NCBI RefSeq assembly: GCF_003018255.1
Contig: NZ_CP027440.1
Length of the DNA stretch: 64,000 nt
From: Escherichia coli
GTDB taxonomy: Bacteria; Pseudomonadota; Gammaproteobacteria; Enterobacterales; Enterobacteriaceae
Strand: one strand, 5' to 3'
The notes beneath the pieces are model-generated. The model was given only the letters and a program-made list of their open reading frames with translations, ran no database searches and was not told the origin of the DNA. This document shows, piece by piece, positions 4,534 through 42,473 of the stretch. Positions within the stretch are counted from its first letter, which is position 1. The number at the start of each line of letters is the position of its first letter. Position numbers and translations under genes: made by a program.

Positions 4534-4581
4534 GGATGTAGTTTTAGATGAAATGTTCACAACAGAGTTTTGTTCATGAAT

Positions 4582-16914: not shown

Positions 16915-17027
16915 CGCTGTGCCGTCGCGGGGTTCACCACCTCTCCCATCCTACCCGACCTGGTGTACCGCCGCATAACAGGGACTGTTTCGCAGGGATG
17001 CGTATTTTTCGTCCGGAGAACAAGAAG

Positions 17028-17708: not shown

Positions 17709-17719
17709 AGGAGGACGTG

Positions 17720-21237: not shown

Positions 21238-21255
21238 CGTCGCCGGAGTGTTGAG

Positions 21256-22203
21256 ATGAGAAAAATTCTTTTCTTCCTGCTGTTGATGATAGCCGTCCTG
21301 CCGGAGGTTCAGGCCACCTGTTCGTTCTACGGTGGTGTGACATCAGAAGTATCGGGTTACCTGAATTTCGGCAACGTGGTTATCCAGCGGGATGCACAGG
21401 TCGGCAGCACGATTGCCACTGCCATTACAGGGGCATACAACAATGGCGACGGCATTGCCGGGTGTAAGCGGGAGGCCTGGACCGCCCGCTGGGAACTGAC
21501 GCAATGGGGGACGCTGAGTGGCTATGGGAATGGTGTCTACAACACCAACCTGCCAGGGGTAGGATTACGTCTGAGTGCGGCCTCGACAGGTAAAACATTG
21601 CCCTATGAAACCAGCTACGCCTACAACGCTGGCGGCACCTGGGTATCCATTCCCGGTGATGGCATCAAGGGCGAGCTTATCAAAACCGGGGATATCACCA
21701 GCGGTACATTAACGGACGGTGTGCTGGCGCGCGCTTCGGTAGTGAATCAGTTTTATTTTGCCAACGTCACGTTGAACGGGATGAACACAGTGAAATCAGA
21801 AGCTTGTACTGTGACCACGCCCTCTGTTGATGTCCCGATGGGGGATCACGATAAAAGCGAATTCAGTGGTGCGGGATCTTCAACCGACTGGGTGAGCTTT
21901 GATATTGGTTTGAGCTGCGATGTCGGGGCGAGAATAAACGTACGTATCGATGCCACTGCGGATGCTTCCGCCGGTTCGCAAGGCGTCATGCTGATTGATA
22001 GCGGCGGGGCGTCTGGCGTGGGGATACAACTTCATTACCGCCCGGATGATGCCGCTGTCCAGTACGGTCAGGAACGGTTTTACTGGCAGTCGGTATATGG
22101 TGACGAGATCGTGCAGCTTAAGGCGCGATATTACCAGACTGCAGGCTCGATCACGCCAGGTGCGGCAAACGGTACGGCGACGTTTACGATGAGTTATAAA
22201 TAG
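21256..22203 (+). CDS. Fimbrial minor subunit / adhesin-like protein 2 (paralog of previous)
   Basis: Signal peptide MRKILFFLLLMIAVLPEVQA; C-terminal pilin domain ATFTMSYK matching the previous gene. Confidence 0.7.
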   Translation: MRKILFFLLLMIAVLPEVQATCSFYGGVTSEVSGYLNFGNVVIQRDAQVGSTIATAITGAYNNGDGIAGCKREAWTARWELTQWGTLSGYGNGVYNTNLPGVGLRLSAASTGKTLPYETSYAYNAGGTWVSIPGDGIKGELIKTGDITSGTLTDGVLARASVVNQFYFANVTLNGMNTVKSEACTVTTPSVDVPMGDHDKSEFSGAGSSTDWVSFDIGLSCDVGARINVRIDATADASAGSQGVMLIDSGGASGVGIQLHYRPDDAAVQYGQERFYWQSVYGDEIVQLKARYYQTAGSITPGAANGTATFTMSYK

Positions 22204-22214
22204 CGCGTAATCAT

Positions 22215-23762
22215 ATGGAATATTCTATGTCGGATATTGTCGCCGGGAACAGGATTGCTGCTCAATATTTAAGAATGTCTACCGAGCATCAGAAATATTC
22301 GCCGGAGAACCAGCGGGAATATATCGAGAAGTATGCAAAAGAACACTGTATTACCATTAAATATACCTATGACGACGCTGGCCGAAGTGGGCTGAGCCTG
22401 GATAACAGGCCTGGCCTGCGTTCGCTGTTATATGATGTTGAAAACGGAATAATAAAAGTCTCGTTAATTCTTGTTTACGATGTCAGTCGGTTTGGTCGTT
22501 TTCAGGATATTGAAGAGGCTGCTCATTACTCGTGGCTACTGAAGCGTAATGGTGTGCGCATTATTTATTGCGCGGAGCCTTTCTCGGAAGAACAGACCGA
22601 ATTGTTTATGCTGGGATTATCTTACTCCCGCTATGGCGCCGCAACTTACAGTAAAAACCTTTCACAAAAAGTTTTTCTTGGCCAGGCAAACCTCGTTCGG
22701 CGGGGTTATTATCAAGGTGGTATGCCTGGCTATGGCATTCGGAGATTATTAATTGATGAACATACTAATCCGAAAGGCATGCTTCTGCCGGGGCAAAGGA
22801 AAAGCCTGCAAACTGACAGAGTAATATTGATCCCGGGGCCCGCGGAAGAGGTGGTAATAGTCAATAAAATCTATGACATGTTTATTGATGAGGGCAAGCC
22901 TGAGTTTGTTATTGCTTCAGAACTGAACCGGAAGAACATCCCCGCCGAGAATGGGCTCCAGTGGAGCCGATGTAAAATTCATCAGATACTGACCAATGAA
23001 AAATATATTGGCAATAATGTTTATAACAGAACCTCCGGACGATTGAAGACCCGAAGTGTCAGGAATCCTCAGGATCAGTGGATCAGATGTGACGGCGCGT
23101 GGGACCCTGTGGTATCAGTAGAGAAATTTGAGGCGGCTAAAAGGATTATTGAAGCCAGGGCCGTTCAGTACAGTGATGATGAACTGCTGGATAAACTACG
23201 CCATCTGCTGAAGCTTCGTGGCAGATTATCCGGGATTGTGATTGATGAAGAGGAACTGTTTCCATCGAGCAGCATTTTTCGTTCACGGTTTGGTGGGTTA
23301 GTCAGGGCTTACACCCTTATTGGTTATCACCCGCGCCATGATTACTCTTATCTTGAAATAAAAAAGCAGATTGCAGAATGCCATCTCACTTTCATGGATA
23401 ATTTGGTGCAGGATATATACCGATATGGCGGTTGGGCAGAGATGCATCAGGATGGTTCATTATATATTAATGATGAGTTTTTTGTTTCCGCTAATCTGGT
23501 TCGCTGCCAACGTTTGTCGTCAGGTAAGCTTCGTTGGAAGATAAAATTTAATGTATCCCATTATTGTGATGTCATGATCTTTCCACGGTTGGATAGCACA
23601 AATAACTCCGTGGTTGATTACTTTATGTTTCCGGCTATTGATGTGTTGTATAACGATTTAACGCTTCATGAGAACAATGGTTTTATCCTCGAACTATATC
23701 GATTTGATGATTTGTCATGTCTGGAAAATCTTGTAAAACGAACTGGTCTGGAGAGTAAATAA
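22215..23762 (+). CDS. Large serine recombinase (resolvase/invertase catalytic domain plus recombinase domain)
   Basis: N-terminal AAQYLRMSTEHQ...YDDAGRSGLSLDNRPGLRSLL...YDVSRFGR matches the serine-recombinase catalytic domain; 515 aa; starts 11 bp after the fimbrial operon. Confidence 0.8.
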   Translation: MEYSMSDIVAGNRIAAQYLRMSTEHQKYSPENQREYIEKYAKEHCITIKYTYDDAGRSGLSLDNRPGLRSLLYDVENGIIKVSLILVYDVSRFGRFQDIEEAAHYSWLLKRNGVRIIYCAEPFSEEQTELFMLGLSYSRYGAATYSKNLSQKVFLGQANLVRRGYYQGGMPGYGIRRLLIDEHTNPKGMLLPGQRKSLQTDRVILIPGPAEEVVIVNKIYDMFIDEGKPEFVIASELNRKNIPAENGLQWSRCKIHQILTNEKYIGNNVYNRTSGRLKTRSVRNPQDQWIRCDGAWDPVVSVEKFEAAKRIIEARAVQYSDDELLDKLRHLLKLRGRLSGIVIDEEELFPSSSIFRSRFGGLVRAYTLIGYHPRHDYSYLEIKKQIAECHLTFMDNLVQDIYRYGGWAEMHQDGSLYINDEFFVSANLVRCQRLSSGKLRWKIKFNVSHYCDVMIFPRLDSTNNSVVDYFMFPAIDVLYNDLTLHENNGFILELYRFDDLSCLENLVKRTGLESK

Positions 23763-24649
23763 TGAAATCTTTTGATGAACAGATAGAACTTGTCGATATC
23801 AGTGATATTTATATCGCAAATCCACGGAAAAGGAATAAATTCATTCATAATGAAATAAAAGAGAACATAAAAACCATTGGTCTGAAACGGCCTGTTAGCG
23901 TGCGCCCAGTGAATAATGAAAACTATAAATATGCCCTGATTTGTGGTCAGGGACGACTTGAAGCGTATATTGAGTATGGTGAAACGAAAATTCCTGCAAT
24001 CATCAAGCAGGTTGATGAAGAGACAGCGCACCTGATGAGCCTGGCTGAAAACATCGCAAGACGTAATCCCCGGGCGGCAGAGCTAATGGAAGATATCAGA
24101 AGAATGAAGACCAGTGGCCTGACCGATCGTGAAATAGGCTTGCGGCTTGGGTATAATTCGAGTTGGGTAAATGGGGTGATCACTCTGTTGTCATCCGGAG
24201 AGAAGCATCTTTTGCGGGCATTTGAGACTGGCGATATTCCCTTGTATCTTGCTGTGGAAATATCCCGGTCAGGAGATGAGGAAACTCAGGAACTGCTGAC
24301 GGTCGCCCTGAAAGAAGGACATATCAAGGGTGGGCAAATTAATAAGATCAGGCGCATACTTGAACAACGTAAGAAAGGCGATAAAGGTACGATTAGTACG
24401 GCTTTTTTTCCTGGGAAAAAACAGAAAAAACTGACCCCGGAAGAACTGGCTAATGTCTACCAGGAAAACATTAATGAGCAAAAAGCCATTCTGCTGAAAT
24501 CCACAATGGTTAAAGAGAAAATTCTGGCAGTAAAGCAAATATTTGGTTATTTACTTAAAGATAATGATTTTGTTACATTGCTGCACAGTAATAATATCCA
24601 CGATATTCCTTCTTTACTGGATGGCAGTGATGTATCGGGGGAGAAATAA
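23762..24649 (+). CDS. ParB/Srx-fold (ParB N-terminal-domain-like) protein 1
   Basis: Motifs ELVDISDIYIANPRKRN, GLKRPVSVRP, ICGQGRLEA (arginine-finger-like) and an HTH-like GLTDREIGLRLG; TAATG overlap with the recombinase stop. Confidence 0.65.
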   Translation: MKSFDEQIELVDISDIYIANPRKRNKFIHNEIKENIKTIGLKRPVSVRPVNNENYKYALICGQGRLEAYIEYGETKIPAIIKQVDEETAHLMSLAENIARRNPRAAELMEDIRRMKTSGLTDREIGLRLGYNSSWVNGVITLLSSGEKHLLRAFETGDIPLYLAVEISRSGDEETQELLTVALKEGHIKGGQINKIRRILEQRKKGDKGTISTAFFPGKKQKKLTPEELANVYQENINEQKAILLKSTMVKEKILAVKQIFGYLLKDNDFVTLLHSNNIHDIPSLLDGSDVSGEK

Positions 24650-24650
24650 G

Positions 24651-25541
24651 ATGATTTCACAATGTTTTGACTCCCGATTTTATACCTTTAAGGTGGAATC
24701 ACTGGTGTATGCCAGAACGCTGCCGGTTAATGTTAAATTCAGTACGAAGTACAAACAAATTAAAGCCTCTGTCGATGAAATTGGGTTAATTGAACCCATT
24801 GTGGTTTATATCAATGACGCCAATGATAAAGTCATTCTGGATGGACATCTTCGCGTTGAAGTTTTGAAAGAACTCGGAATAACTACTGCTCATTGTCTGA
24901 TATCCCCTGTGGAGGATACATATTCATATAACAAACGTGTTAGTCGCCTTACCATTGTGCAGGCCCAAAACATGCTGCTTAAAGCGGTTGAATCTGGCGT
25001 TTCAGTTGAAAAACTATGCGCCGTACTGGGTGTCACGCCAGATACGCTGATTGGTAAACTGAAAATTTCTGATGGCATTGCCCCTGAAGTCATGGCGTTA
25101 CTGGCAGAAAAAAATGTACCGCAGACCATTTTCTCTGTGTTGAAAAAACTAAAGTTCTATAAGCAGATAGAAATGGTTAACACCATGATCAGTATTAATA
25201 ATTTCACCCGCAAATTTGCGATGTCGATGCTGCATGCCGTTGCCCCTGAACATCTTGTAGCGCCTAAAAAAGATGCCAGCAGAGAAACAGATATCAGAAA
25301 AAATCTCGAAAGACTGGAAAAAGAAATGGCTTCCGTTCAGGTGGAAACGCAGCATCTTCAGGATGAATATGCTGAGAATAACCTTCGGCTGGTTATCATT
25401 AAAAATCACATTGAACGTCTGCTGGCGAACGGTCAGGTACTTAACTGGCTTTATGATAACCATCAGGAGTACCTTTCTGTGCTCAAGCAAATCTCGGGGC
25501 TGGATGATTTGAATAAGCTTGGCCAGACAATTGAGGAATGA
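24651..25541 (+). CDS. ParB/Srx-fold protein 2
   Basis: IEPIVVYINDANDKVILDGHLRVEVLKELG is ParB-box-like; start 2 bp after the previous stop. Confidence 0.6.
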   Translation: MISQCFDSRFYTFKVESLVYARTLPVNVKFSTKYKQIKASVDEIGLIEPIVVYINDANDKVILDGHLRVEVLKELGITTAHCLISPVEDTYSYNKRVSRLTIVQAQNMLLKAVESGVSVEKLCAVLGVTPDTLIGKLKISDGIAPEVMALLAEKNVPQTIFSVLKKLKFYKQIEMVNTMISINNFTRKFAMSMLHAVAPEHLVAPKKDASRETDIRKNLERLEKEMASVQVETQHLQDEYAENNLRLVIIKNHIERLLANGQVLNWLYDNHQEYLSVLKQISGLDDLNKLGQTIEE

Positions 25542-25740
25542 CACATTTTTAAAGCAAGGACTGCTGTTTTACAGATTGCCACTATGATGGGATGCACTGA
25601 GAGAGGAGGGCGTGCTGGTGGTTGACGTGATTCAACTGGTGCGGAAAATCTTGCTCAAAGGACGATGGCTTAAAATCAAGTTGCTGTTTCAAAAATGAAA
25701 AAGTAGATTTACATCCACTTTTCTTACTGAGGTAAAAATA

Positions 25741-26199
25741 GTGCATATAGATGCGGATTTCATAAGCTTGAGCACATTGGTGGCTAATCAACAAGCTGCA
25801 AAATGGGCGGGGGTTGCTGCTATTGCTGCCTGTTTGACGTTTGTTGTGACAACGATAGGTTTACTACTTGCTTGGCGGTCGTTGCATCAGTGGAAGCCTC
25901 AATACAAAGAAAACTCTAGACTTCTCCTAATCGAAGCTTTAATCGCATTTCAGAAATGTTTAATAACTATACCAAAAAATCTCGATAACGATCCCACCTA
26001 TCAAAGCCGAAAGGAATTTTTGAAGGCAAGTACTGAAGTTGAGCTAAGAGGACAAATATATCTTAAGCAACACAGCAACGAAAAATTAAAAGATGAATTA
26101 GCAAATCTCAGGAGTAAATGTGCAGAATTTGTTGGTGGTAAGGTGACTAAACCTGAACTGTCATTCATCTCAGCAATAATATTACTCATTGAAGTATAA
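25741..26199 (+). CDS. Hypothetical membrane-anchored protein (GTG start)
   Basis: One transmembrane segment AAIAACLTFVVTTIGLLLAW; AT-rich; possibly a fourth gene of the recombinase module. Confidence 0.35.
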   Translation: MHIDADFISLSTLVANQQAAKWAGVAAIAACLTFVVTTIGLLLAWRSLHQWKPQYKENSRLLLIEALIAFQKCLITIPKNLDNDPTYQSRKEFLKASTEVELRGQIYLKQHSNEKLKDELANLRSKCAEFVGGKVTKPELSFISAIILLIEV

Positions 26200-26222
26200 T
26201 AGATTCTGGGCTAACACCAATC

Positions 26223-26256
26223 GGTTACCCGGTTGGGATATCGCTTCCGGGTAACC
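26223..26256. repeat. Perfect 10-bp inverted repeat GGTTACCCGG-N14-CCGGGTAACC, followed by a second hairpin (about 26256-26283)
   Basis: Seen directly; lies at the boundary between the AT-rich recombinase module and the creatininase gene. Confidence 0.4.
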
Positions 26257-26301
26257 TGTGGAAAGGCAAAAGCCACTCCACAGGTTGCCCGAGCATATCG
26301 A

Positions 26302-27093
26302 TTACATGTTTGCGTCTTTATTTAACGCATATTGCCAGTTAGCTGCATCCAGCTTTCTCAGCAACGCGCAAAGCACATCCACCAGACAGGCGAGGATCCG
26401 CTGGCCTTTTTCCGCCGTGGCGCAGCGCGGATCGCCGGTTGCTCCGGTGGCGCTGATTTCCCCGATATCCCAGATCCGGTTCACGCCATAATCAGCGAAC
26501 ACCTCCACCGGGATCTGTTTCTGCGCATATTTCAGTTCCACCAGCTCCGGAATCAGCGCCATCATGACGGACGTTTCGCCCTCGCCGCCGTGTCCTAGTC
26601 CGGTGTTATCCCATGAGTCGAAAAATCCCTTCCCGAGATGATGTCCCACCAGATCCCACCACGCCGGAACCACGACAATCGCTGCCTGCGTATGTCGGGC
26701 CTTCACATTGCGGGCGGCGATTTCAATCGCCGGAATATTACCGTCATGGCCGTTAATCACCAGGATCCGGCGAATACCGTGGTGCAGCAGGCTGATGAAG
26801 ATATCTTCCGCCAGCGCGATATTGGTCTCGTAGCGTAGGGTGACCGCCAGTGGATAGGCATTGTAGTGAACGGATGTGCCGAACGGCGTGCAGGGCAGCA
26901 CAAGGGTATTATCCACCCGCTGCGCCACCCGGCAGGCGACGATTTCGGGTACAAACATATCGGGGCCGAGTGGCAGGTGATCGGCGTGGTTCTCACAACT
27001 GCCGAAGTTGACGATAGCAGTGAGTTCCTTACCAGACTGCAACAGCTCGCGGATTTCCCGGCCAGTCAGTTCATTGAGCATGACTTTTTTCAT
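26302..27093 (-). CDS. Creatininase-family amidohydrolase
   Basis: Family motif TAIVNFGSCENHADHLPLGPD and LVINGHDGN; start MKKVM with AGGAGG ribosome-binding site. Confidence 0.7.
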   Translation of the reverse strand: MKKVMLNELTGREIRELLQSGKELTAIVNFGSCENHADHLPLGPDMFVPEIVACRVAQRVDNTLVLPCTPFGTSVHYNAYPLAVTLRYETNIALAEDIFISLLHHGIRRILVINGHDGNIPAIEIAARNVKARHTQAAIVVVPAWWDLVGHHLGKGFFDSWDNTGLGHGGEGETSVMMALIPELVELKYAQKQIPVEVFADYGVNRIWDIGEISATGATGDPRCATAEKGQRILACLVDVLCALLRKLDAANWQYALNKDANM

Positions 27094-28429
27094 CGGACAG
27101 CCTCCTGTTTTTTCGGACGACAAAGATGTAGTACGCGCTGGCGAGGGCCAGCCAGATCAGGACGGTAACCAGGGTAATGCCGCCGCCGTCGGTGAAAAAT
27201 TGCCCGGCCATGATCAGCGCAATCAGCCCCACGGTGAGTGGCTGGATGTAGCGGGCGGCCGGAGCCTTGTATTTCAGCGTTCCGTCGTGCAGGGCTATTC
27301 GGTGCAGGGTGGGCTGGCTTAAGGCAATCATCAGCCAGGTGAACAGAAAGCCGAATCCGGAAATCCCGGCGAGGATGACATACGCATCTGGCGAGAGAAT
27401 GGCGATGATGACGCCGGTAAACAGCACCAGGCTGCTGGCAAGAATGGCGTTATCCGGTGTTTTATGTGCCGGGTGCAGGCGGGCAAACCAGGCCGGGAAA
27501 TAGCCGTCAGACGCCATGGCGTGCAGCATCCGCGAGGTGGCGTAAACCCCGGTATCGATGCAGGAGAGCGCGGCGGTCAGCACCACAAAGTTCATGATAT
27601 GCCGCGCCATATGGCCACCGAGAATGCCGGAAGCTTCGACATACGGGCTGCTGCTGACACCTGCCTGCTGCCAGGGGAGAACGAGCAGCAGAACGGTCAA
27701 TGAGCCGACATACAGCAACAGGATCCGCACCACGGTGCCACGCAGCGTACGAGGAATATCACGCTGTGGGTTCTCGCTTTCACCCGCGGCGGTGCCGATG
27801 GCCTCTGTCCCGCCGAAAGAGAAAATCACCATTAACATCGCGCCGAGAAATCCGGGCAGCCCGCCAGCAAAAAAGCTGCCGCTGTCGGTCGGATGACTGA
27901 TGCTGGCGGGTGAGGCGTTATCCAGTCCCAGGCTGTAGCAGCCCGCGACGATAAAGGCCAGCAGCGCCACGACTTTCACCAGGCTCAGCCAGAACTCCAC
28001 TTCACCGAAAAAATGAACGCCGACCATGTTGATGGCAGTCAGCGACGAAGCGATCACCAGGCAAAACAGCCAGACGGGGACTCCGGGAAACCACAGGTTC
28101 AGGAAGGTGCCTGCAGCGATGGCCTCCGACGCCGGGCCAATCAGGAAGGCCAGCCAGTAGGTCCACCCGGTGATAAAGCCACACCATGGGCCAAAGGCGG
28201 TGCGGGCATAGGATTCAAAGGAACCGGAGACGGGCCTGGCGACCGCCATTTCGGCAAGCAACAGCATAATGAACAGGGTGATGACACCGCCGATAAGGTA
28301 GGCCAGCACCACCGACGGCCCGGTACGGGCAATGGCCGCGCCTGCGCCGAGGAAAAATCCGGCACCAATCACGCCTCCCACGGAAATCATCGTCAGGTGA
28401 CGGGCTTTCAGACTTCTGTTGAGTTCCAT
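27071..28429 (-). CDS. Amino-acid permease (APC superfamily)
   Basis: 452 aa with about 12 transmembrane segments; N-terminal LTMISVGGVIGAGFFLGAG is a typical APC signature. Confidence 0.8.
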   Translation of the reverse strand: MELNRSLKARHLTMISVGGVIGAGFFLGAGAAIARTGPSVVLAYLIGGVITLFIMLLLAEMAVARPVSGSFESYARTAFGPWCGFITGWTYWLAFLIGPASEAIAAGTFLNLWFPGVPVWLFCLVIASSLTAINMVGVHFFGEVEFWLSLVKVVALLAFIVAGCYSLGLDNASPASISHPTDSGSFFAGGLPGFLGAMLMVIFSFGGTEAIGTAAGESENPQRDIPRTLRGTVVRILLLYVGSLTVLLLVLPWQQAGVSSSPYVEASGILGGHMARHIMNFVVLTAALSCIDTGVYATSRMLHAMASDGYFPAWFARLHPAHKTPDNAILASSLVLFTGVIIAILSPDAYVILAGISGFGFLFTWLMIALSQPTLHRIALHDGTLKYKAPAARYIQPLTVGLIALIMAGQFFTDGGGITLVTVLIWLALASAYYIFVVRKNRRLSDEKSHAQ

Positions 28430-28472
28430 AATGTCTTCTCTTTTGTTGTTGTGGATGGATTCAAGGCAGCGC

Positions 28473-28847
28473 TTATGGCCGTCCCTCCTCAATCAGCAGT
28501 TCACCGTACAGGTCGTGAAGTTTAGGGATTGGGCCGGAGAGATGAACGGCTCCCGAATGGCAGGCATTCAGGCTGCCGTTAAACACCATGGTCAGGTGGC
28601 CAAGTTCAAACAAAGACTGCTGTGCCTCTTTACCCACGGCGGTCACCAGGTAGTCATGGCTCGCCAGCAGCAGCCGATCGCCGGGCAGGATCAGCAGGTC
28701 GTCTTCGCGGAATGAGGGTTCCAGCGACAGGGAATAGTCCAGGCAGTCTTTCGGTCCGTTGCTGTCAAAGGTGATAAGCGTCCTGTCTGCCAGTCCGTCG
28801 GCGACAAACAGCCCGATAGCAACGATGCGTGCGCAGTAGGTCATCAT
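28473..28847 (-). CDS. Hypothetical protein (124 aa)
   Basis: ORF only; adjacent to the permease. Confidence 0.3.
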   Translation of the reverse strand: MMTYCARIVAIGLFVADGLADRTLITFDSNGPKDCLDYSLSLEPSFREDDLLILPGDRLLLASHDYLVTAVGKEAQQSLFELGHLTMVFNGSLNACHSGAVHLSGPIPKLHDLYGELLIEEGRP

Positions 28848-29065
28848 GGCTCGTTCTCCCGTTTGTCGGGCATGAGAGTACGGCCTGGTGTAGGTGAGCA
28901 GGCATGTAGCCTGAATAGGTGAATAAAGCCTTCAGTCCGGGAGGCCGGGTGAAGGTGGCCTCCGGTTGTAAGAGCGATGGAGCAAGGGTGTGGTTCGGTG
29001 TGCATAAACAACTCTCCTGTCAGGTGTCGTTGATTAATGCGTCCTGCCACTCACAGCGCGGGTCG

Positions 29066-29341
29066 TTATGTCCCGGAGTTTTCTGTTGTTGTCATGAGGT
29101 GAAGCGGTTTACGGGGTTCACGTTTATTTCCCGTATTGAGGTAACGTTCCGGCCAGATTTCTGACGGATGCTTTCCCAGCGCAATGGCAATCAGCCACTC
29201 ACCTTTCGGCCACGGTCGGTTCAGGGCATTCGCCAGCGTTGACGAGGCCAGTCCCGCTTCCCGCGAGAGTTTCGCCAGACTGGTGCCGCGCTTGTGTAAG
29301 GCGGCAATGATATCGGCGGGGTGCCAGTCTTTTTTAGTCAT
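29066..29341 (-). CDS. Nlp/Ner-family DNA-binding protein
   Basis: WHPADIIAALHKRGTSLAKLSREAGLASSTLANALNRPWPKGE closely resembles Nlp/Ner. Confidence 0.75.
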   Translation of the reverse strand: MTKKDWHPADIIAALHKRGTSLAKLSREAGLASSTLANALNRPWPKGEWLIAIALGKHPSEIWPERYLNTGNKREPRKPLHLMTTTENSGT

Positions 29342-29359
29342 TCCGTTTACCTCTATTGT

Positions 29360-29410
29360 TGACTATGAGTCACGAATGTATGCTAGCACGCTTTTTATGT
29401 GACTCATAGT
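29360..29410 (+). promoter_or_regulatory. Inverted pair of 13-bp sites GACTATGAGTCAC (29360-29372) and GTGACTCATAGTC (29398-29410) in a divergent promoter region
   Basis: Seen directly between the Nlp-like gene and the first Xre gene. Confidence 0.5.
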
Positions 29411-29448
29411 CCGTGGACTGATAATCAACGAAGATTGATGCTGGCTAG

Positions 29449-29712
29449 ATGGAAAAGACGGGATCAATCAAAAAGGTACTGGGTAAAAGAATCAGGGCTC
29501 TACGCCGTGAGATGGACCTATCCCAGGAAGCTTTAGCCGACAAATGCGGTATCGATCGCACCTATATGAGTGGAATTGAGCGAGGAGTAAGGAACCCCAC
29601 GCTTGTTGTCATTTGTGCAATCTCGGACGGTCTGGGGATGGATCTTAGCCATTTATTTATGTTTGACGATGGCGCAGAAAAGGACGCCGAATCAACGAAG
29701 TGTGACTCATAG
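29449..29712 (+). CDS. Xre-family HTH regulator (paralog A)
   Basis: LSQEALADKCGIDRTYMSGIERGVRNPTL helix-turn-helix. Confidence 0.7.
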   Translation: MEKTGSIKKVLGKRIRALRREMDLSQEALADKCGIDRTYMSGIERGVRNPTLVVICAISDGLGMDLSHLFMFDDGAEKDAESTKCDS

Positions 29713-29714
29713 TC
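29702..29714 (+). promoter_or_regulatory. Third copy of operator-like site GTGACTCATAGTC, overlapping the stop of Xre paralog A
   Basis: gtgactcatagtccgtgg(a/t)ctgata is repeated at 29398 and 29702. Confidence 0.5.
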
Positions 29715-29751
29715 CGTGGTCTGATAGACAACGTAAGTTCATTTTATCTGG

Positions 29752-29976
29752 ATGAAAAATACATCCAGTATTCAGGCGCAGTTTGGCGCACATCTCAAAA
29801 AACTCAGACTCCAGTCGGGCCTGTCTCAGGAAGCATTCGCGGATAAGTGTGGTCTCGATCGTACTTATGTGAGCGGTATTGAGCGGGGAGTAAGGAATCC
29901 AACCCTTGAGGTGATAAGTGTTTTAGGAAAAGGGTTGGACATGGACATCAAAGAATTATTCAACTTTGAAAGATAG
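29752..29976 (+). CDS. Xre-family HTH regulator (paralog B)
   Basis: LSQEAFADKCGLDRTYVSGIERGVRNPTL; tandem paralog of the previous gene. Confidence 0.7.
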   Translation: MKNTSSIQAQFGAHLKKLRLQSGLSQEAFADKCGLDRTYVSGIERGVRNPTLEVISVLGKGLDMDIKELFNFER

Positions 29977-29978
29977 GT

Positions 29979-30899
29979 TTATCTATTAGTAGCAACTCTA
30001 TCCGCAGCAGTACGGGTAACTTGATTTCCAACATCCCAGCCGTTTTCATCTGGGAGTGACATCCCATCCATTGGCATTAGGATAAAACCACCAATAGTTG
30101 GTCCAAATGACTCAGTAGTGTTAATTCCTGCATAGCTTGTTCTGATAATATTTTCATTCAAATTGGTCAAAAATGATATTCGAGTACCAAGTGGGTGCGC
30201 GGTTACCATTTGGATGTATCCACCAATAGTATTGACTGTTTCTTGGTTAATCCAATTATTCAAAGCAATAAACGGGGTACGCCACCAATTTATTGTGTTA
30301 GGAGTAAATTGTTGCCTGGTATTCTCTATAAACTCATTAAGTTCATGCAAGTTATCACCTAATAAAACAGGTCTGCCTGTTGATAAATTTTGAATATCTT
30401 CAATCTGGAGGTTGGCTGGGTGCTCAATAGAGTTATTGAGTTTTATAATTTTGTAGGTTTGTGTTCTCCAGCAAAAACCAAAAATTATCATCTGTATTCT
30501 TACTGCTTGGGGAAAGGATTGGCCGATATCAGACATATATTGCTCGGCAATATTTTTTGCTAATGAAGCTATTTCATTAAGACTTGGGAATGCTTCGGTC
30601 GATATTTGTTGTTCTGGATTATTGTTCGCAATCTCATGAAGTCTTGCTAATGATACTGCAAGCATTTCTTTGACATTAATTCCAATCATTGTACTTCCTG
30701 CAAATCCGAAGCCAAATTCGAATATTTTTTGCGGGTGAATTCGATAAACGTCCGAAGAGCGAATAACTGATACGGGGATTGAGAATAATTTCGGACAATG
30801 GTCAGTTAGTCTGCTATTTTGCTGAGTGATTCTTGAGTCGCTGACTGCCCAAATACTATCGCTTTCCTCTCTATTAAACCAACATGCAATTGCGGTCAT
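29979..30899 (-). CDS. Candidate N-terminal-nucleophile hydrolase with proteasome-beta/HslV-like N-terminal region and ~130-aa C-terminal extension
   Basis: From the internal start, M-TAIACWFNREESDSIWAVSDSRIT...FGFGFAGS echoes HslV TTIVSV...VIAGDGQAT...AGFAGG; AT-rich. Confidence 0.45.
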   Translation of the reverse strand: MTAIACWFNREESDSIWAVSDSRITQQNSRLTDHCPKLFSIPVSVIRSSDVYRIHPQKIFEFGFGFAGSTMIGINVKEMLAVSLARLHEIANNNPEQQISTEAFPSLNEIASLAKNIAEQYMSDIGQSFPQAVRIQMIIFGFCWRTQTYKIIKLNNSIEHPANLQIEDIQNLSTGRPVLLGDNLHELNEFIENTRQQFTPNTINWWRTPFIALNNWINQETVNTIGGYIQMVTAHPLGTRISFLTNLNENIIRTSYAGINTTESFGPTIGGFILMPMDGMSLPDENGWDVGNQVTRTAADRVATNR

Positions 30900-30947
30900 A
30901 AGGTTTTTCCAGTTATTTAACATTAATGCGAATAGCTTAGCATATTT

Positions 30948-36002: not shown

Positions 36003-36658
36003 GGTTTCTCCTCCGCCACCAGACGCTGCGGCGCGGCATCGGTACAGTCGATCGCCAGTCCCCACGGATTTTTCTCCGCATCGATGGCGTAGCGCACCAC
36101 CTGCAACGGGTAGCGCACCAGCGCTTTTTTCACCGGCTCGTTCTGGTAGTACTCTTCCACCGCCACATCCAGCGTTACCCGCCATGAATCCCGGCTCAGC
36201 GCCTCCACGCGCGGGAAGGGGCGCTTCTCGCCCTCATGCACCAGGCTGCTGTAGCCGTGGCCGGGCAGTTCATAGACGCCGCGCGTGCGGTCGCGCAGTT
36301 CACCGCCGTTGCGACGCACCTGAAAATCGTGCTCCAGCCGGGTGTAACAGGCGGGCGTCAGGTAGGCACGCAGCGAACGAAGATTACGGGAATAGTCCTC
36401 CTCGCCGTTATCCGGCCAGCGGTTAAGCTGCTGGAAGATATAAAAGGTGAAGGCGTAGACGCTGGCGGGAGGCACTTCCCACCACGGGCGGGTGCTGCCG
36501 CTGCGCAGATCCGGCGGGAACCAGAGGGTGAGCTTTTGCGGCGCGCTGTACCAGCCGTAGCCGACGCCCGCCAGACACAGGCACAGCAGAACAATCACCG
36601 CCCGCAGCGTCAGGATATGGTTATCGCGCTCAGCCAGCGCATGGCGAAAGCGGCTCAT
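35999..36658 (-). CDS. ICE T4SS protein, VirB8-like
   Basis: Single N-terminal transmembrane segment; start at MSRFRH. Confidence 0.4.
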   Translation of the reverse strand: MSRFRHALAERDNHILTLRAVIVLLCLCLAGVGYGWYSAPQKLTLWFPPDLRSGSTRPWWEVPPASVYAFTFYIFQQLNRWPDNGEEDYSRNLRSLRAYLTPACYTRLEHDFQVRRNGGELRDRTRGVYELPGHGYSSLVHEGEKRPFPRVEALSRDSWRVTLDVAVEEYYQNEPVKKALVRYPLQVVRYAIDAEKNPWGLAIDCTDAAPQRLVAEEKP

Positions 36659-37008
36659 CGTGGACTCCTGCGCACCACCCACACGGCGCTGTGCTGGATC
36701 AGTTGTGCGCCGCGAAGATGATGACGCTCCAGCCAGGCGAGGAGCGCCTGCGGCAGCCAGGTGTCGGGCTTACCGCGTTTTGCGCGGGCCAGAATCCGCC
36801 CACCACCCTGAATCAGTAATGCCGCGCCAGCAAGTGCCGAACCGGGGATCAACGGCCAGTAGTGGGTTATCAGGGCCAGCAGAATGCCGAACGCACAGCC
36901 GCCGCCAAGACCGAGAGCCAGCGCCAGAAACAGTTCGCTGGTGGTGAGGCCGCGCCAGACCACGGGCTCGCGGTTGAGGCGGTCGGGGAGAAAGGGGATG
37001 GTTGCCAT
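36655..37008 (-). CDS. ICE T4SS small membrane protein
   Basis: Hydrophobic ORF; start MATIPF. Confidence 0.4.
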   Translation of the reverse strand: MATIPFLPDRLNREPVVWRGLTTSELFLALALGLGGGCAFGILLALITHYWPLIPGSALAGAALLIQGGGRILARAKRGKPDTWLPQALLAWLERHHLRGAQLIQHSAVWVVRRSPR

Positions 37009-37009
37009 A

Positions 37010-37327
37010 TCACAGGACGTCCGAAGCCTGGTTGAGCAGCCAGATGATGACCACCAGAAGAATGCTGCCGACGCCTGCCATCGAGCCCAGATCTTTCCAC
37101 TGCTTGCGTCCGCTCTGGATCTCCGAATAGGTAGCAATACAGTTGTTCGCCACTACCAGAAAACCGACGGCACAGATGGCCAGCGCCAGCAGCACCACGA
37201 TGTCAAAACCGTAGTTTTGCAGCGTCTCCATAATGCCCTTGCCCTGACCGCGTGACGGATCTTCCATCGTCGGCAGGTCGGCGAGGGCGTTAAATGTGGC
37301 GAACAGCAGTAACAGAAACCAGCGCAT
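37010..37327 (-). CDS. ICE T4SS membrane protein, pilin-like (VirB2-like)
   Basis: Signal peptide plus two hydrophobic helices, 105 aa. Confidence 0.4.
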   Translation of the reverse strand: MRWFLLLLFATFNALADLPTMEDPSRGQGKGIMETLQNYGFDIVVLLALAICAVGFLVVANNCIATYSEIQSGRKQWKDLGSMAGVGSILLVVIIWLLNQASDVL

Positions 37328-37336
37328 GATGCCTCC

Positions 37337-37570
37337 TCAGCTCAGTACCAGCCAGAAGCTGACTAGCACCAGTAACAGTGAATGGGCCGCCACCGCGCCA
37401 AAGCTCTGCCAGCTCAGACGCTGGCGGCAGACGCCCTGCCAGGCGACCATTAGCGTCCAGGCACACCACAGCAGCAGGACGCTGGTAAACAGGCCGAGCA
37501 CCAGCAGGCTGACGGTCTCCGGTTTGCTCAGGCTGGCGGCCTGAAAGGCGGCGAGTTGCGAGTCAGTCAT
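37337..37570 (-). CDS. ICE small membrane protein
   Basis: Two transmembrane segments, 77 aa. Confidence 0.4.
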   Translation of the reverse strand: MTDSQLAAFQAASLSKPETVSLLVLGLFTSVLLLWCAWTLMVAWQGVCRQRLSWQSFGAVAAHSLLLVLVSFWLVLS

Positions 37571-37871
37571 CGGGATTCTCCTGCTGGTAGTTGGCGCTCA
37601 GGGGCTGAATAGCACGCGGCTGTGCTCTAGCCGGGGCAAGATAGCGGCGAATGCCTTGTTCAACGACAGAGATGTCCTGCTGCGCCTGTAAGTAGTCGAA
37701 GAAGTAGCGCGCCTGCGGATCGTTGCTGGCGCTGGTCCGGGCGTGCTCCAGCGAGGTTTTAACGCCGTCGAGTTGCTTCAGCGCGAGGGCGAGCTGGGTG
37801 GATTCCGGGGAGGCGATTACCAGTACCGGGAAAGGTATTATTAACAGTAATAGTGCTGTCTGGGACTGCAT
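37563..37871 (-). CDS. RAQPRD-family ICE protein
   Basis: Contains ARAQPRAIQP plus a signal peptide. Confidence 0.55.
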   Translation of the reverse strand: MQSQTALLLLIIPFPVLVIASPESTQLALALKQLDGVKTSLEHARTSASNDPQARYFFDYLQAQQDISVVEQGIRRYLAPARAQPRAIQPLSANYQQENPDD

Positions 37872-37938
37872 TTGAAGCTCTCCTTATACTCAATGATTAG
37901 CAAAGTAGGAGAGCTTCAGAGGTGAAGCAGCTAAAAAA

Positions 37939-39180
37939 TCATTTCACTACATGAAGAATTTTTAGCATAGAGTTGTCAATGGTCTGTTTGATTTTCTCGT
38001 AATAAATTGGTTCAGATAATGGCGAGTCCCAGGTATGTATATCATTTTTATCAAAGGGAATACATTTCATCGCTGTCTTTTTTAGTTTTTTCCCTTTTTG
38101 TTCGTACTCGTCAATGTCATTTACAGTGAATTTCAAACTTTCTATTCTTGCTTTGACTATTGCTGTTGGGCAGATGAGTTTTATATTCCCTAAAGTAAAT
38201 GTGTTAACTCCAGTAATGAAGAATCTATCAGGGATGTTTTTATAGTATCGAGTATTCCATATTTTACCATTAAACATACCTGCTGGGTGAGTTGCTCTTT
38301 CAATATAGTATTCATGGGTTCTCTGGTCACTAATCCCTGAAAGATTCATTGTCATATTAGCTATCATGTTGGGAATAGGTCTGTACCAAACGCTAAGTGC
38401 AGCGGTTGCGACAGGTATAAATATTAAAACAACAATAATTCCTGTCATTTTATTGCCGTTTTGCCGTTCATTAATATGTATGATACCAGGCAGAATGCCA
38501 ATTGTAACAATAACTACAGTTATGGCAATGAGTATGCTCATCTCATACCAGTCACTAGTACCCTCACTGAAATTAAGTTGGTTAAACAGAAACATCATTG
38601 GTAATATTTGTACTACTCCAGGTATTATAAGTTGTAAGGATAACCAGAAGTTGAATCCTTTCTTTCTGGATAGTTTTTCGTATCGCACTGTATTATTTAA
38701 GCGAGATTTTTGTTTTCTAAATAGCCGAATCGCACATGTAACATAGCTGTGAATAAATATGGAAATAATACTAAAGGCTGTAATTATGTAGCCATTCCAT
38801 TTTGTCATGTAATAAATGTAATAAGCAATGATTAGCAGGCAGCATATAAATAAGCTATTCTGATAGCAAACAGTAGAAATCCGATGGGTGATGCTAGAAT
38901 ATACCTTTAACTTGTTTTCATATCCAGAGTAAATAAGTATTAAAATAAAAGATGAGATGAAAATTATTAGGCTGAATCCTGATATCGATAATAAAATAAA
39001 AAAGAATATAATCCCTAAGGTTGAACTGAGGTTTACAGCATCGAAAAAAATATCTAATCTATCAATGTTTGATAGGTAAAACCATATAACTGCTATCGTG
39101 AATCCAGTGATGAAGGTAGATGAGGTTACTACTGAAATAATGAATTTTTTGTTTATGATATTAAAAATAGGTTTGTCCAT
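37939..39180 (-). CDS. AT-rich polytopic membrane protein of unknown function inserted within the T4SS operon
   Basis: 413 aa; about 7 N-terminal transmembrane helices plus a C-terminal soluble domain; codon usage unlike the flanking GC-rich genes. Confidence 0.6.
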   Translation of the reverse strand: MDKPIFNIINKKFIISVVTSSTFITGFTIAVIWFYLSNIDRLDIFFDAVNLSSTLGIIFFFILLSISGFSLIIFISSFILILIYSGYENKLKVYSSITHRISTVCYQNSLFICCLLIIAYYIYYMTKWNGYIITAFSIISIFIHSYVTCAIRLFRKQKSRLNNTVRYEKLSRKKGFNFWLSLQLIIPGVVQILPMMFLFNQLNFSEGTSDWYEMSILIAITVVIVTIGILPGIIHINERQNGNKMTGIIVVLIFIPVATAALSVWYRPIPNMIANMTMNLSGISDQRTHEYYIERATHPAGMFNGKIWNTRYYKNIPDRFFITGVNTFTLGNIKLICPTAIVKARIESLKFTVNDIDEYEQKGKKLKKTAMKCIPFDKNDIHTWDSPLSEPIYYEKIKQTIDNSMLKILHVVK

Positions 39181-39225
39181 GGTTTGAATTCCATCTCTAA
39201 AAAATTTCTTGTCTTGTGTTTTTTA

Positions 39226-39510
39226 TCACCAATTTACAGGTAAGCGCCGATGGGTATGAAACACGCGTAAAACCTGAATTATATTATTTCGTACTCGATA
39301 GGGAATGATATAAGGGTAATTATGAAGAATGAGCTCACGTGTTTCAGGTACCCTTCCTTCCCGGCCCATAGCGGGTTGCTCTTTGAGCAGTTGCGTAAGT
39401 CGCCAGACTTCGTTCACAAACCGTTCCGCAGCCTGCGGATCGTCTTCAGCAATATACCGGAACTCAGCTTCGAGATTGGCAATGGCTTTACGTAGCCACT
39501 TAATTTCCAT
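39226..39510 (-). CDS. ParE/RelE-family type II toxin
   Basis: 94 aa; ...ILHNYPYIIPYRVRNNIIQVLRVFH. Confidence 0.75.
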   Translation of the reverse strand: MEIKWLRKAIANLEAEFRYIAEDDPQAAERFVNEVWRLTQLLKEQPAMGREGRVPETRELILHNYPYIIPYRVRNNIIQVLRVFHTHRRLPVNW

Positions 39511-39745
39511 CTGGCTTTACTCCCAGACGTTGAAACAGCTTATCCACCTCATCTGAAGTGGCAAAATCACCGGCATCAGCTTCCTGAATGGCCTGCTCAA
39601 TCTCTGCAACTTGCCAGGCCTCCCGGGCAACATAATCTTCAATTGCCTGATTTGCCAGCCAGGACTTTGAGCGTCCGGTCGCTTTTGATAATGCTTCCAG
39701 TTGCGTGGAAAGATTGTTGTTTAAACGGACTGACATTACGCCCAT
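39500..39745 (-). CDS. Ribbon-helix-helix antitoxin (ParD/CopG-like)
   Basis: Start MGVMSVRLN with GAGG ribosome-binding site; overlaps the toxin start. Confidence 0.65.
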   Translation of the reverse strand: MGVMSVRLNNNLSTQLEALSKATGRSKSWLANQAIEDYVAREAWQVAEIEQAIQEADAGDFATSDEVDKLFQRLGVKPDGN

Positions 39746-39810
39746 ATTGGTGGCCTCATACACATGTACACATTGTATACATTGTAGTGAGGTGCGATTT
39801 TTTGAGCAAC

Positions 39811-40458
39811 TTATAACCAACGTTTAAAGCTTCCTGCTGCCATCCATACCGCTATCCCGGACCATAAGGCGGCAGGAAGTAAAACCAGCATCGCGGGCAG
39901 AGAAAATGGCTGCGCCAGATAAACCACCCAAAGCGTGGTGGTGACTGAACTGCCGCACCTGATGACATAACGGTGGAGAAAAATGGATTCCAGCCCGGAG
40001 CCAAACCGTCTTAAATCCCGGTGTACCAGGCCTTCTGTCAGCCCGGTTACAGCACTGAGGCACAGCAGTGGCAACATGATAACCAGCCACGTCAGGCGCA
40101 GCGCAAAGCTGATCATGGTATAAGCCAGGACGGTAACGGGTTCGTGGAACAACCGACTCACGGCCTTATGTCTGACATCATTAACGCGGGTTATTCCATG
40201 CTCCAGCAGTACTCGTATCTCTTTCCCCAAAGGATGTGGCTGTACCGCAATAATCAGTTCCACCTTCTCCTGCCTCATCACCTGAAAAACATGCCTGCTC
40301 CCTTCCTGCGGCCACCAGAAATATAGCCCCACTAGTTCCAGCACCACTCGCAGCACCAGCGTACCGATAACCAGCCCAATAATCCGTCCGGCCAGTGACA
40401 ATAGCCAGCCAATCGGTCCCTGTGGTGGGCGTGACGGAGGCGGTCGCAGCTCACTCAT
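39811..40458 (-). CDS. ICE integral membrane protein
   Basis: Start MSELRPPP; 4-bp overlap with the TraD stop; multiple transmembrane segments. Confidence 0.5.
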   Translation of the reverse strand: MSELRPPPSRPPQGPIGWLLSLAGRIIGLVIGTLVLRVVLELVGLYFWWPQEGSRHVFQVMRQEKVELIIAVQPHPLGKEIRVLLEHGITRVNDVRHKAVSRLFHEPVTVLAYTMISFALRLTWLVIMLPLLCLSAVTGLTEGLVHRDLRRFGSGLESIFLHRYVIRCGSSVTTTLWVVYLAQPFSLPAMLVLLPAALWSGIAVWMAAGSFKRWL

Positions 40459-42473
40459 TCCGTTAGCCCCTGCTGGCGCGCCTGCATCCACGCCGCCAGT
40501 TGCGCGACAGAATCTGGTAGTGGGCATTGCTTATCCGCTACGGGCAGCGGCAGACGAATTTTCCACAACTGCCCGCCTTCCAGCAGGGCAAAAGCCTGGC
40601 CTTTGGGGAGCTGGATCAGCGCGGCGGTATCCAGCAGCGGTACATTGCGGGTGGTCACCTGCTCGCAGGTGTTGCTGGTAAAGCCGTTGATGCCGCCCGG
40701 CGTGTCGGTGACACCTGAACTGACCTGGCGGCTGCGCACTTCCACCTGTGGCAGTTGCTTCGTCAGCAGTTCGGCGGTGGCGGTTTCGCGTACCCGCAGC
40801 ATAATCAGGTTGTTGAAGTTACCCACCACCTGGCCTGTCTTTGGTGCGCTGCCGATACGGGCCTGAATATCACTCAACGTCTGCGTGTAGGCGGTGACCT
40901 GAATGCCCGCACCGCCGCCCTTGTTGACCAGGGGAATAAACTCCTCGCCCATCAGTTCATTAAACTCATCGCAGTGCAGATTGATAGGCGGCGGTTTTTC
41001 GCTATTGCCGGGCAGTCCATCATTGAGGCCAAATTTATACAGATGCCCGGCGACGCTCACCAGATCGGCAAACATCGAATTGCCGACGGCGGCAGCGACC
41101 ACCGAATCGGAGAGCGCGTCCAACCCGACATAGACTACCGCCTTCTGGCGGATCGCCTGTTGCCAGTCGAGGATCGGACGCGCGTCGTCCAGATCGTGGT
41201 AATCCGGGGCCAGCAGGGCGGCAAGCGTGCCGGTGGTCAGCTTTTCCAGCAGTGGCAGCAGTGAGGCGACAATCTTGTCGAAATAGGTTTTGTCATAGCG
41301 CACCGCCGAGAGCAGGCCATCGAGGATCGGATCGTATAATTTTTCCGCGTTGAGGTACTGCTCCAGCGCCACCACGTGAGGATCGCGGCCCAGCATGTGG
41401 CGCGGCGTGTTTTTGTCGTTAACGCGCTCCGCCAGTTGCACCACCACTTCCCATGACCGCGTGTTGTGGCGCGGCAGCACGATGCGGGCATAGTCGATAA
41501 ACAGGGCGTCGATATTGACGACGTGGCGGGAAATTAACTGATAGTCGGGGCGCTGGCCGAGCGCCACCAGGGCGCGGGCGATGATGTTGACAAAGCGCCA
41601 GGCGAACTCGCGAAAGGCCGCCGAGTTGCCTTCGCCGGAAAGCTGACCAGTGAGGCGAGACGCCACCTCCGAAATGCGGCCAAATCGCCCGATAGCGTTG
41701 TAGCGGGCGGAGAACTCCGGGTACGCCAGATGGAACAGGATAAAGCGGTCGCCGCGTCCGGCGCGCTGCGCTTCTTTCCACATACGCTTCAGCAGATCCG
41801 CGTCGCCTTTCGGATCAAAAACGATCACCACCTCGCCACGGCGGATGTCCTGAGTGGCAAGCAGTTCCGCCAGCCGGGTTTTGCCAACGCGGGTGGTGCC
41901 GAGCACCAGCGTATGGCCGGGGCGTTCACTGAGCGGCAGAGTGACGTCGCACTCTTTTAGTTCCACCCCATGCAACCACGGATTGCCGCCTACGGGTGGC
42001 AGCGGACGTACTGGGTTCAGCCAGCGATCGGCGCTGAGCAGTCGGGCAAGGCCGGGCAGGGTATGCTCGCTGCGTTTTTCGATGTGTCTTGCCAGGCGGT
42101 AACACCATCCGGGGCGCAGCCAGCGTGCGGCTTCCGGTTGCAGGCAGTCGTACAGACGCTGTGTGTGGATGGGCTGCCAGCGAAAGCCTTTACCGAGAAA
42201 CAGCCTCTGGCGGCTGACGGGGATTTTCCGGCTGGTGAGCGCGTAGCGCGGCAGGCGCAGGAGGTTACGCTGGTAGCGTACGATTTGCCATCCCTGCCAG
42301 CCGCGCCGCAGGGCCAGAAGCATCAGGGCACTGGCCATCATGCGGGCCTGCCACGGCGTCAGCATCAGCAGCGGGGCCTGCGTCAGGCAGATTAATGCGC
42401 CACAGCCAGCGATGACGGTGCTGTAAAACTCCACGGGTGGGCGCAGCAGCGCCTCCAGCGCGTAGCGGCTCAT
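40455..42473 (-). CDS. Conjugative coupling protein TraD (VirD4-type ATPase)
   Basis: 672 aa; N-terminal transmembrane segments; Walker A LVLGTTRVGKT. Confidence 0.8.
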   Translation of the reverse strand: MSRYALEALLRPPVEFYSTVIAGCGALICLTQAPLLMLTPWQARMMASALMLLALRRGWQGWQIVRYQRNLLRLPRYALTSRKIPVSRQRLFLGKGFRWQPIHTQRLYDCLQPEAARWLRPGWCYRLARHIEKRSEHTLPGLARLLSADRWLNPVRPLPPVGGNPWLHGVELKECDVTLPLSERPGHTLVLGTTRVGKTRLAELLATQDIRRGEVVIVFDPKGDADLLKRMWKEAQRAGRGDRFILFHLAYPEFSARYNAIGRFGRISEVASRLTGQLSGEGNSAAFREFAWRFVNIIARALVALGQRPDYQLISRHVVNIDALFIDYARIVLPRHNTRSWEVVVQLAERVNDKNTPRHMLGRDPHVVALEQYLNAEKLYDPILDGLLSAVRYDKTYFDKIVASLLPLLEKLTTGTLAALLAPDYHDLDDARPILDWQQAIRQKAVVYVGLDALSDSVVAAAVGNSMFADLVSVAGHLYKFGLNDGLPGNSEKPPPINLHCDEFNELMGEEFIPLVNKGGGAGIQVTAYTQTLSDIQARIGSAPKTGQVVGNFNNLIMLRVRETATAELLTKQLPQVEVRSRQVSSGVTDTPGGINGFTSNTCEQVTTRNVPLLDTAALIQLPKGQAFALLEGGQLWKIRLPLPVADKQCPLPDSVAQLAAWMQARQQGLTE

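Follow-up and report, generated by a model that had tools for sequence, protein, structure and literature searches.

A ParDE-type toxin-antitoxin operon resident in the traD-RAQPRD cargo hotspot of an Escherichia coli ICE, a candidate addiction module

Introduction

What a pair of small toxin and antitoxin genes does between two blocks of conjugation genes, and why it stays there, is the question raised by a locus in a 64,000-nucleotide stretch of Escherichia coli DNA, hereafter referred to as the window. The window, whose sequence recurs with 100% identity in the E. coli JNE23-011 chromosome, harbors an island of the ICEclc/PFGI-1 type, recognizable by its TIGR037xx gene set, a MobH relaxase and TraD. 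The island is integrated beside a tRNA-Leu gene (591-675), which together with a tyrosine integrase gene (897-2573), both on the plus strand, marks its integrase end. A sequence-only reading of the window had noted an overlapping toxin-antitoxin (TA) pair within the transfer genes and proposed that it stabilizes the island as an addiction module.

Identity of the toxin-antitoxin pair

Both genes of the pair reside on the minus strand, with the antitoxin gene first in order. The parD-like antitoxin gene (39500..39745) encodes a protein of 81 amino acids with an N-terminal CopG-type ribbon-helix-helix (RHH) domain, while the parE-like toxin gene (39226..39510) encodes 94 amino acids, and the start of the toxin gene overlaps the stop of the antitoxin gene by 11 nt (ATGGAAATTAA). 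The toxin matches the Pfam family PF05016 (ParE_toxin) with an E-value of 1.3e-17 and 64.5 bits (cut-off 23), and the antitoxin matches both PF01402 (RHH_1), with 22.6 bits (cut-off 20.5), and RHH_3, with 22.1 bits (cut-off 21.6); the Pfam matches of both proteins lie far above chance level. With its antitoxin gene at the 5' side, the overlap, the small products and a promoter-like region of its own that contains a palindrome, the pair displays the layout of a type II TA operon. The overlapping ParE/RHH type II pair of the sequence-only reading is thereby borne out, since both open reading frames are found where that reading had placed them and score above the Pfam cut-offs.

Judged from its sequence, the antitoxin is a CopG-type RHH ParD, as are ParD of Pseudomonas aeruginosa and CopA_SO of Shewanella, and its C-terminal part probably binds the toxin. 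It reaches 45.7 bits against the NCBIfam equivalog NF048017 (RelB-like antitoxin), under the cut-off of 50; it is related to this equivalog group but no member of it. Automated annotation had already named the pair correctly: in E. coli JNE23-011, PGAP designates the identical toxin gene 'type II toxin-antitoxin system RelE/ParE family toxin' and the identical antitoxin gene 'CopG family ribbon-helix-helix protein'. The locus accordingly represents an uncharacterized ParDE pair in a very large family.

Placement of the toxin within the RelE/ParE superfamily

In a search of all PDB sequences, the best matches of the two partners are two chains of one and the same complex, the P. aeruginosa ParDE structure 6XRW: the toxin matches 6XRW_A with an E-value of 1.2e-9, and residues 3-70 of the antitoxin align with 6XRW_B (ParD) with an E-value of 4.1e-8. 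The antitoxin additionally matches CopA_SO (7ETR_A/6IYA; E 3e-4), and further toxin matches are ParE2 of E. coli O157 and a Mesorhizobium ParE. A toxin profile built from 27 family members retrieved ParE-type structures only from the PDB, namely 6XRW, 5CW7, 6X0A, 7ETR_C, 5CEG, 8C24, 3KXE and 8C26, while no RelE, YoeB, HigB or YafQ was matched in this profile search. The AlphaFold (AF2) model of the toxin, with a pLDDT of 90.9, consists of a long N-terminal alpha-hairpin (helices 7-23 and 25-41) packed on a three-stranded sheet. In a Foldseek search with this model, ranks 1-23 are all of the ParE type, with TM scores of 0.76-0.88, and RelE, YoeB and YafQ follow at 0.45-0.64. Moreover, the C-terminal FH..RR.P motif, which is invariant in the toxin family, is intact in the window toxin.

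Because PDB sequence matches, profile matches and fold ranking are all ParE-type, the toxin is filed as ParE, and both sequence and model place it, as far as such comparisons reach, in the ParE branch of the RelE/ParE superfamily. The sequence-only reading had called it 'ParE/RelE type'; the first half of that label stands, as all top fold matches are ParE, whereas the RelE half falls away on lower TM scores and the lack of a PDB profile match. It could still be argued that the toxin acts as a ribosome-dependent mRNA interferase like RelE instead of as a ParE-type gyrase poison, which would leave the pair a type II TA system. PF05016 spans the whole RelE/ParE superfamily, the generic PGAP name covers both branches, and there is a weak match to the NCBIfam RelE/StbE family (TIGR02385) at 26.5 bits. 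That score lies below the cut-off of 27.9, however, and neither the profile search, nor the wide gap between the two ranges of TM scores, nor the N-terminal alpha-hairpin of the model, which is specific to ParE, agrees with such an assignment. Hence, a RelE-type toxin was judged very unlikely.

Putative promoter and operator

The 65-bp spacer between the stop codon of the preceding DUF4400 gene and the antitoxin gene (39746..39810, minus strand) contains a putative promoter/operator of the TA operon, delineated from sequence and conservation. Manual reading of the minus strand yields a -35 element, TTGCTC, at 39809-39804, which is separated by a 17-nt spacer from a -10 element, TACAAT, at 39786-39781, and a Shine-Dalgarno (SD) motif, GAGG, is located at 39757-39754, 8 nt before the antitoxin ATG. 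Two TGTA(C/T)ACAT repeats, 9 nt apart, overlap the promoter-like region, and a 16-bp imperfect palindrome (39770-39785) overlaps the -10 element. A consensus promoter scan gave no call at the proposed promoter, which is attributable to the weak -35 element, matching at 3/6 positions only. The TTGC...TACAATGTATACAA core is kept 5' of the homologous pairs in the ICE relatives L096 and L098 as well as 5' of a chromosomal pair of Dickeya, and within the 64-kb window the TTGC...CACTACAATGTATACAA core is unique. In its arrangement, the upstream region resembles an autoregulated RHH operator and may well serve as one. The idea that the antitoxin also regulates transfer genes was dropped, as no further copies of the operator-like motif were found elsewhere in the ICE.

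With regard to transcription beyond the pair, a scan predicted no minus-strand terminator across the insert, so that read-through into the RAQPRD and T4SS genes is not obviously blocked. A small hairpin, GCTTCA-CCTC-TGAAGC, is present at 37913-37928 (minus strand) between the stop codon of the adjacent membrane protein gene and the Shine-Dalgarno sequence of the RAQPRD gene; it was not called a terminator because no T-run follows it. An Rfam scan of positions 36500-41000 returned a chance-level match only (E 0.81).

The traD/DUF4400-RAQPRD junction as a cargo hotspot

Upstream of the pair lies the gene for a DUF4400/DtrJ-like ICE membrane protein (TIGR03747; 39811..40458, minus strand), which is translationally coupled with traD (TIGR03754; 40455-42473, minus strand) and forms one flank of the site. 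The other flank, downstream, is the gene for a RAQPRD-family ICE protein (TIGR01690; 37563..37871, minus strand), with which the next T4SS block begins. Homology to other E. coli ICEs ends exactly at the DUF4400 stop codon (39811-39813) and restarts about 18 codons inside the RAQPRD gene, near 37818, and these breakpoints delimit a variable cargo segment of about 2 kb (37819..39810) that holds the TA pair and an AT-rich membrane protein gene. The segment is set apart by its composition as well, the GC content being about 0.62 in the ICE, about 0.47 in the TA genes and about 0.32 in the membrane ORF. The codons for the RAQPRD signal peptide fall inside the variable segment.

In three E. coli ICEs with 93-95% identical TraD, three different cargos occupy exactly the same junction: a hypothetical gene plus a DUF1848 gene in one, an AAA ATPase plus an HNH endonuclease (a Septu-like pair) in another, and an anti-phage dCTP deaminase in the third. 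A wider survey, in which the DUF4400 alignment was run against representative genomes, yielded 80 loci from Halomonas, Pseudomonas, Citrobacter, Salmonella, Pantoea and others. Both flanks are present in 61 of these loci, among which 33 show an empty junction of 112-470 bp only, while the remaining 28 carry cargo of 0.67-9.2 kb, with a GC content nearly always below that of the flanks. The cargo ORFs include GajB-like UvrD (Gabija-like) helicases, AbiEi/AbiEii, HipA (HipBA), SIR2 and SRAP proteins, and further arsenic-resistance genes, a beta-lactamase-fold protein and an IS110 transposase. No homologues of ParE, the RHH antitoxin or the membrane protein were encountered in the 80 loci, and small overlapping ORF pairs in two of the hotspots (L049 and L042), considered as TA candidates, were discarded for want of a Pfam match.

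[quoted passage not shown] According to that study, known defense systems occupy 29% of its instances, and TA systems in such hotspots could be either defense or addiction modules. It has the flanks of the present site, with a RAQPRD-family gene at one end and the traD side at the other, and its cargo is likewise variable and often defense-related; the same combination of conserved flanks with content that varies or is lacking between relatives is seen here. On the other hand, GI-Hotspot 8 was reported from Pseudomonas, with CBASS III as its predominant content, and the section devoted to it mentions no cassette of ParDE and a membrane protein, nor does E. coli appear among the other genera listed there (PMC12629846). 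The present data thus show the traD-RAQPRD hotspot, previously described in Pseudomonas islands, operating in enterobacterial ICEs. The view that the pair and the AT-rich membrane gene split the T4SS block proves accurate, with traD and DUF4400 upstream and RAQPRD and the T4SS genes downstream. The wording that the pair sits inside the transfer operon is correct in so far as it lies between T4SS genes, yet the insertion is not an arbitrary operon break, the site being a recurrent cargo hotspot that is empty in about half of the related ICEs.

Other parts of the island carry cargo as well. AbiEi/AbiEii, annotated by PGAP near the integrase end (window ~2773-4534, plus strand), constitutes a second TA/abortive-infection module, and AbiE modules also occur in the traD-RAQPRD hotspot of other ICEs. 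A second and much larger cargo block (window ~15444-30900) interrupts the T4SS genes, lying between TIGR03756 and the conjugative ATPase, and comprises genes for a DNA invertase, a chaperone-usher fimbrial operon, a serine recombinase and ParB/RepB, together with creatininase, amino-acid permease, PTS IIA and HTH genes. The right end of the island (window ~53212-62000) is rich in defense-like genes. A DUF262 gene is paired there with a DUF3696 gene, and genes for Dcm methyltransferase and Vsr accompany a hypothetical gene in an R-M-like group; a gene fragment for a phosphorothioated-DNA restriction endonuclease and an HNH endonuclease gene are present as well.

Residence and divergence of the pair

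The exact toxin sequence is found in 1371 assembly blocks, and the context was the same in 25/25 contigs inspected. A search for closer DNA relatives in E. coli returned only the two identical genomes among 5426. Diverged ICE relatives were reached via toxin homologues, named by their sources as Klebsiella or Citrobacter proteins, and comprise Logan/ENA contigs and a Klebsiella variicola chromosome. The gene order DtrJ-RHH-ParE-membrane ORF-RAQPRD is kept in these relatives; the pair thus occupies one and the same place in E. coli, Klebsiella and Citrobacter-type contigs, while other cargo there turns over. Relative to the window, amino acid identities amount to 93-96% for TraD and 96-99% for TIGR03745 in the backbone, 93-99% for the antitoxin and 89-94% for the toxin, 76-79% for DUF4400 and 81-84% for RAQPRD at the hotspot flanks, and 53-54% for the membrane protein.

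Comparison with the relatives L096 and L098 shows both genes to be under purifying selection: dN/dS is 0.07-0.12 in the toxin gene and 0.16-0.20 in the antitoxin gene, and the overall range of 0.07-0.20 holds over dS values of up to ~1.0. The dS of the TA genes (0.13-0.50) is in the range of that of the ICE backbone (0.23-0.25). Hence, the pair has co-diverged with the backbone and is an old resident of the ICE, despite its unameliorated GC content of 0.47, and it offers a case of long TA persistence at a site of cargo turnover. The hotspot flanks behave differently: between the ICE relatives, DUF4400 and RAQPRD are 76-88% and 81-86% identical, respectively, versus 93-99% for TraD/TIGR03745, which suggests either recombination breakpoints or diversifying selection at the edges of the hotspot.

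Homologues of the pair also occur apart from this ICE clade. The closest plasmid homologues, 55-60% identical at the amino acid level and accompanied by a CopG gene, are located on plasmids of 5-15 kb in Aeromonas, Shewanella and Vibrio, and ParDE homologues of 74-77% identity reside in Dickeya chromosomes outside any ICE. One Dickeya contig (L099) carries two paralogous ParDE pairs, at 1645-2182 and 5820-6285, about 4 kb apart, whose toxins share 77% and 74% identity with that of the window; one pair lies near a Fic-domain gene, and the conserved operator is kept by the first pair only.

The neighboring membrane protein

Downstream of the TA pair, the second cargo gene (37939..39180, minus strand; GC 0.32) encodes an AT-rich polytopic membrane protein of 413 amino acids that matched no Pfam, NCBIfam or PADLOC model and belongs to an orphan family of Enterobacterales. 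A C-terminal domain of about 140 amino acids is conserved and contains two invariant cysteines. The AF2 model attains a pLDDT of 74, and its fold search against the PDB returned nothing better than an E-value of 0.2. The gene follows the TA pair in every ICE relative examined and occurs in two alleles that are 53% identical, with synonymous sites saturated between the window and L096. Among the relatives L096, L103 and L104, by contrast, the protein is 93-97% identical, and since it is only 53-54% identical to that of the window, the window lineage has swapped the allele and retained the TA pair. This exchange of the neighbor while the pair stayed in place makes the ICE clade usable as a natural experiment on whether TA systems in hotspots serve addiction or defense.

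Enterobacter hormaechei, E. coli and Serratia have solitary homologues of the membrane protein, the one in Serratia being adjacent to a type I R-M system. An obligate unit of TA pair and membrane protein was rejected, since small plasmids and Dickeya carry the pair alone, and the membrane protein is encountered elsewhere on its own. The membrane protein is hence not demonstrably part of the TA system, and it is this orphan, more than the TA pair, that constitutes the puzzling item of the locus.

Proposed role of the pair and competing explanations

Taking site, conservation and homology together, we regard it as reasonably probable that the locus is an intact parDE-type TA operon which, as long-standing hotspot cargo of an ICE of the ICEclc/PFGI-1 family, acts as an addiction device. 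In the mechanism proposed, an RHH antitoxin dimer would repress the operon by binding to the TGTATACA-centred repeats overlapping the -10 element, while the C-terminal part of the antitoxin would wrap around the ParE toxin and neutralize it. The antitoxin would be labile, and loss of the whole ICE by excision, or of the segment by deletion, would therefore leave free and stable ParE in the cell. Free ParE would most probably poison DNA gyrase and growth would stop, so that the module would keep the ICE and itself in the lineage by penalizing loss. The gyrase target, adopted from the family, is uncertain because ParE2 of E. coli, one of the two solved homologues nearest to the toxin, is reported not to inhibit gyrase (PMC8706911).

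For an addiction role, which is plausible, there are direct precedents: ParE_SO/CopA_SO maintains the excised prophage CP4So in Shewanella oneidensis (PMC8706911), sgiAT maintains SGI1 (PMC5006074), and HipAB maintains the Shewanella genomic island CGI48 (PMC8978831). An addiction module would be expected to persist as the pair does amid the turnover of other hotspot cargo, and this persistence supports the reading, as do the plasmid-borne relatives. Against it count the homologous pairs in Dickeya chromosomes outside any ICE and the defense-rich content of the hotspot in relatives, which by association favors a role in defense. A further point against it is the state of the ICE itself. PGAP flags the island integrase as a pseudogene (C-terminally incomplete), as well as the ICE topoisomerase III (record 469305-471110, window ~45886-47691; internal stop), although an uninterrupted ORF of 558 amino acids covers the flagged integrase. 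Mobility of this ICE copy is uncertain, and if it cannot excise, there would be little segregational loss to punish.

The main rival to addiction is defense: alone or with the membrane protein, the TA pair could be anti-phage cargo from which infection frees ParE, thereby aborting the infection and protecting clonemates that carry the ICE. We consider this unlikely, and the same applies to the suggested trigger, a shut-off of host transcription by the phage or loss of the antitoxin. What speaks for it is the company the pair keeps, as the junction in relatives carries a dCTP deaminase, an AAA ATPase with HNH, GajB-like helicases, AbiEi/AbiEii, SIR2 and HipA, a solitary homologue of the membrane protein adjoins a type I R-M system in Serratia, and the GI-Hotspot 8 study both reports known defense systems in 29% of instances and names hotspot TAs as possible defense or addiction modules (PMC12629846). 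Yet this argument is one of guilt by association, drawn from location only; toxin, antitoxin and membrane ORF all lack a match to a PADLOC model, a literature search found no demonstrated case of phage defense by ParDE, and persistence of the pair amid cargo turnover is seen more typically in addiction modules than in arms-race cargo.

Many chromosomal TA systems have no phenotype, and the pair could also be a selfish or decaying passenger, inactive or permanently repressed, that is retained because it is not easily lost. The pseudogene flags on integrase and topoisomerase III fit this explanation, as does the GC content of the TA genes, which at 0.47 is still unlike the 0.62 of the ICE. A passenger in decay, however, would hardly account for two intact, full-length ORFs with the C-terminal FH..RR.P motif kept, for a dN/dS of 0.07-0.20 over dS values of up to ~1.0, for a conserved promoter/operator region or for the presence of the exact toxin sequence in 1371 assembly blocks, and we hold it to be distinctly unlikely. 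Slightly less credence still is given to a three-gene cassette in which RHH antitoxin, ParE and the rapidly swapped membrane protein (413/414 amino acids) together serve phage defense or exclusion, conjugative entry exclusion or recipient discrimination, and in which the membrane protein may be the variable specificity or effector component. Its basis is the order of the trio, constant in every ICE relative examined despite replacement by a 53%-identical allele, and, if true, it would make the membrane protein the founder of a new functional family.

Relation to known systems

ParDE of RK2/RP4 is the archetypal addiction system of plasmids, composed of an RHH ParD and a gyrase-poisoning ParE. 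The window pair differs from it in that the RK2 pair is absent among the matches and the antitoxin leaves the Pfam family of RK2-type ParD unmatched, matching the CopG/RHH_1 type only. On integrative elements, mosAT of SXT is a TA system that reduces element loss. The same is true of sgiAT on SGI1 (PMC5006074) and of HipAB on CGI48 (PMC8978831), and all three, mosAT, sgiAT and HipAB, differ from the pair described here in belonging to unrelated toxin families and occupying other positions in their elements.

By sequence, the P. aeruginosa ParDE system (6XRW; PMC6368863) is the best match for both partners, and there, too, the ParE toxin is partnered by a CopG-type RHH antitoxin, with gene order and toxin fold (TM 0.81-0.83) in common. 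Toxin identity is only ~33%, however, and the P. aeruginosa pair is chromosomal and lies outside an ICE hotspot; moreover, its inhibition of gyrase was shown experimentally (PMC6368863), whereas the window toxin is known from sequence and a model. The toxin fold closest by TM score (0.87-0.88, at 34-35% identity) is that of PaaA2-ParE2 from E. coli O157 (5CW7/5CZE/5CZF), which differs in that its antitoxin PaaA2 lacks an RHH DNA-binding domain and in that its toxin is the one reported not to inhibit gyrase (PMC8706911). ParE_SO-CopA_SO (7ETR/6IYA; PMC8706911) is only distantly similar in sequence, belongs to a prophage instead of an ICE and has another operator sequence. Nevertheless, it likewise couples a CopG-type RHH antitoxin to a ParE-like toxin (toxin fold TM 0.74), it resides on an element that excises, and its antitoxin binds inverted repeats in its own promoter (PMC8706911), which makes it the closest functional precedent for the pair in the E. 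coli ICE.
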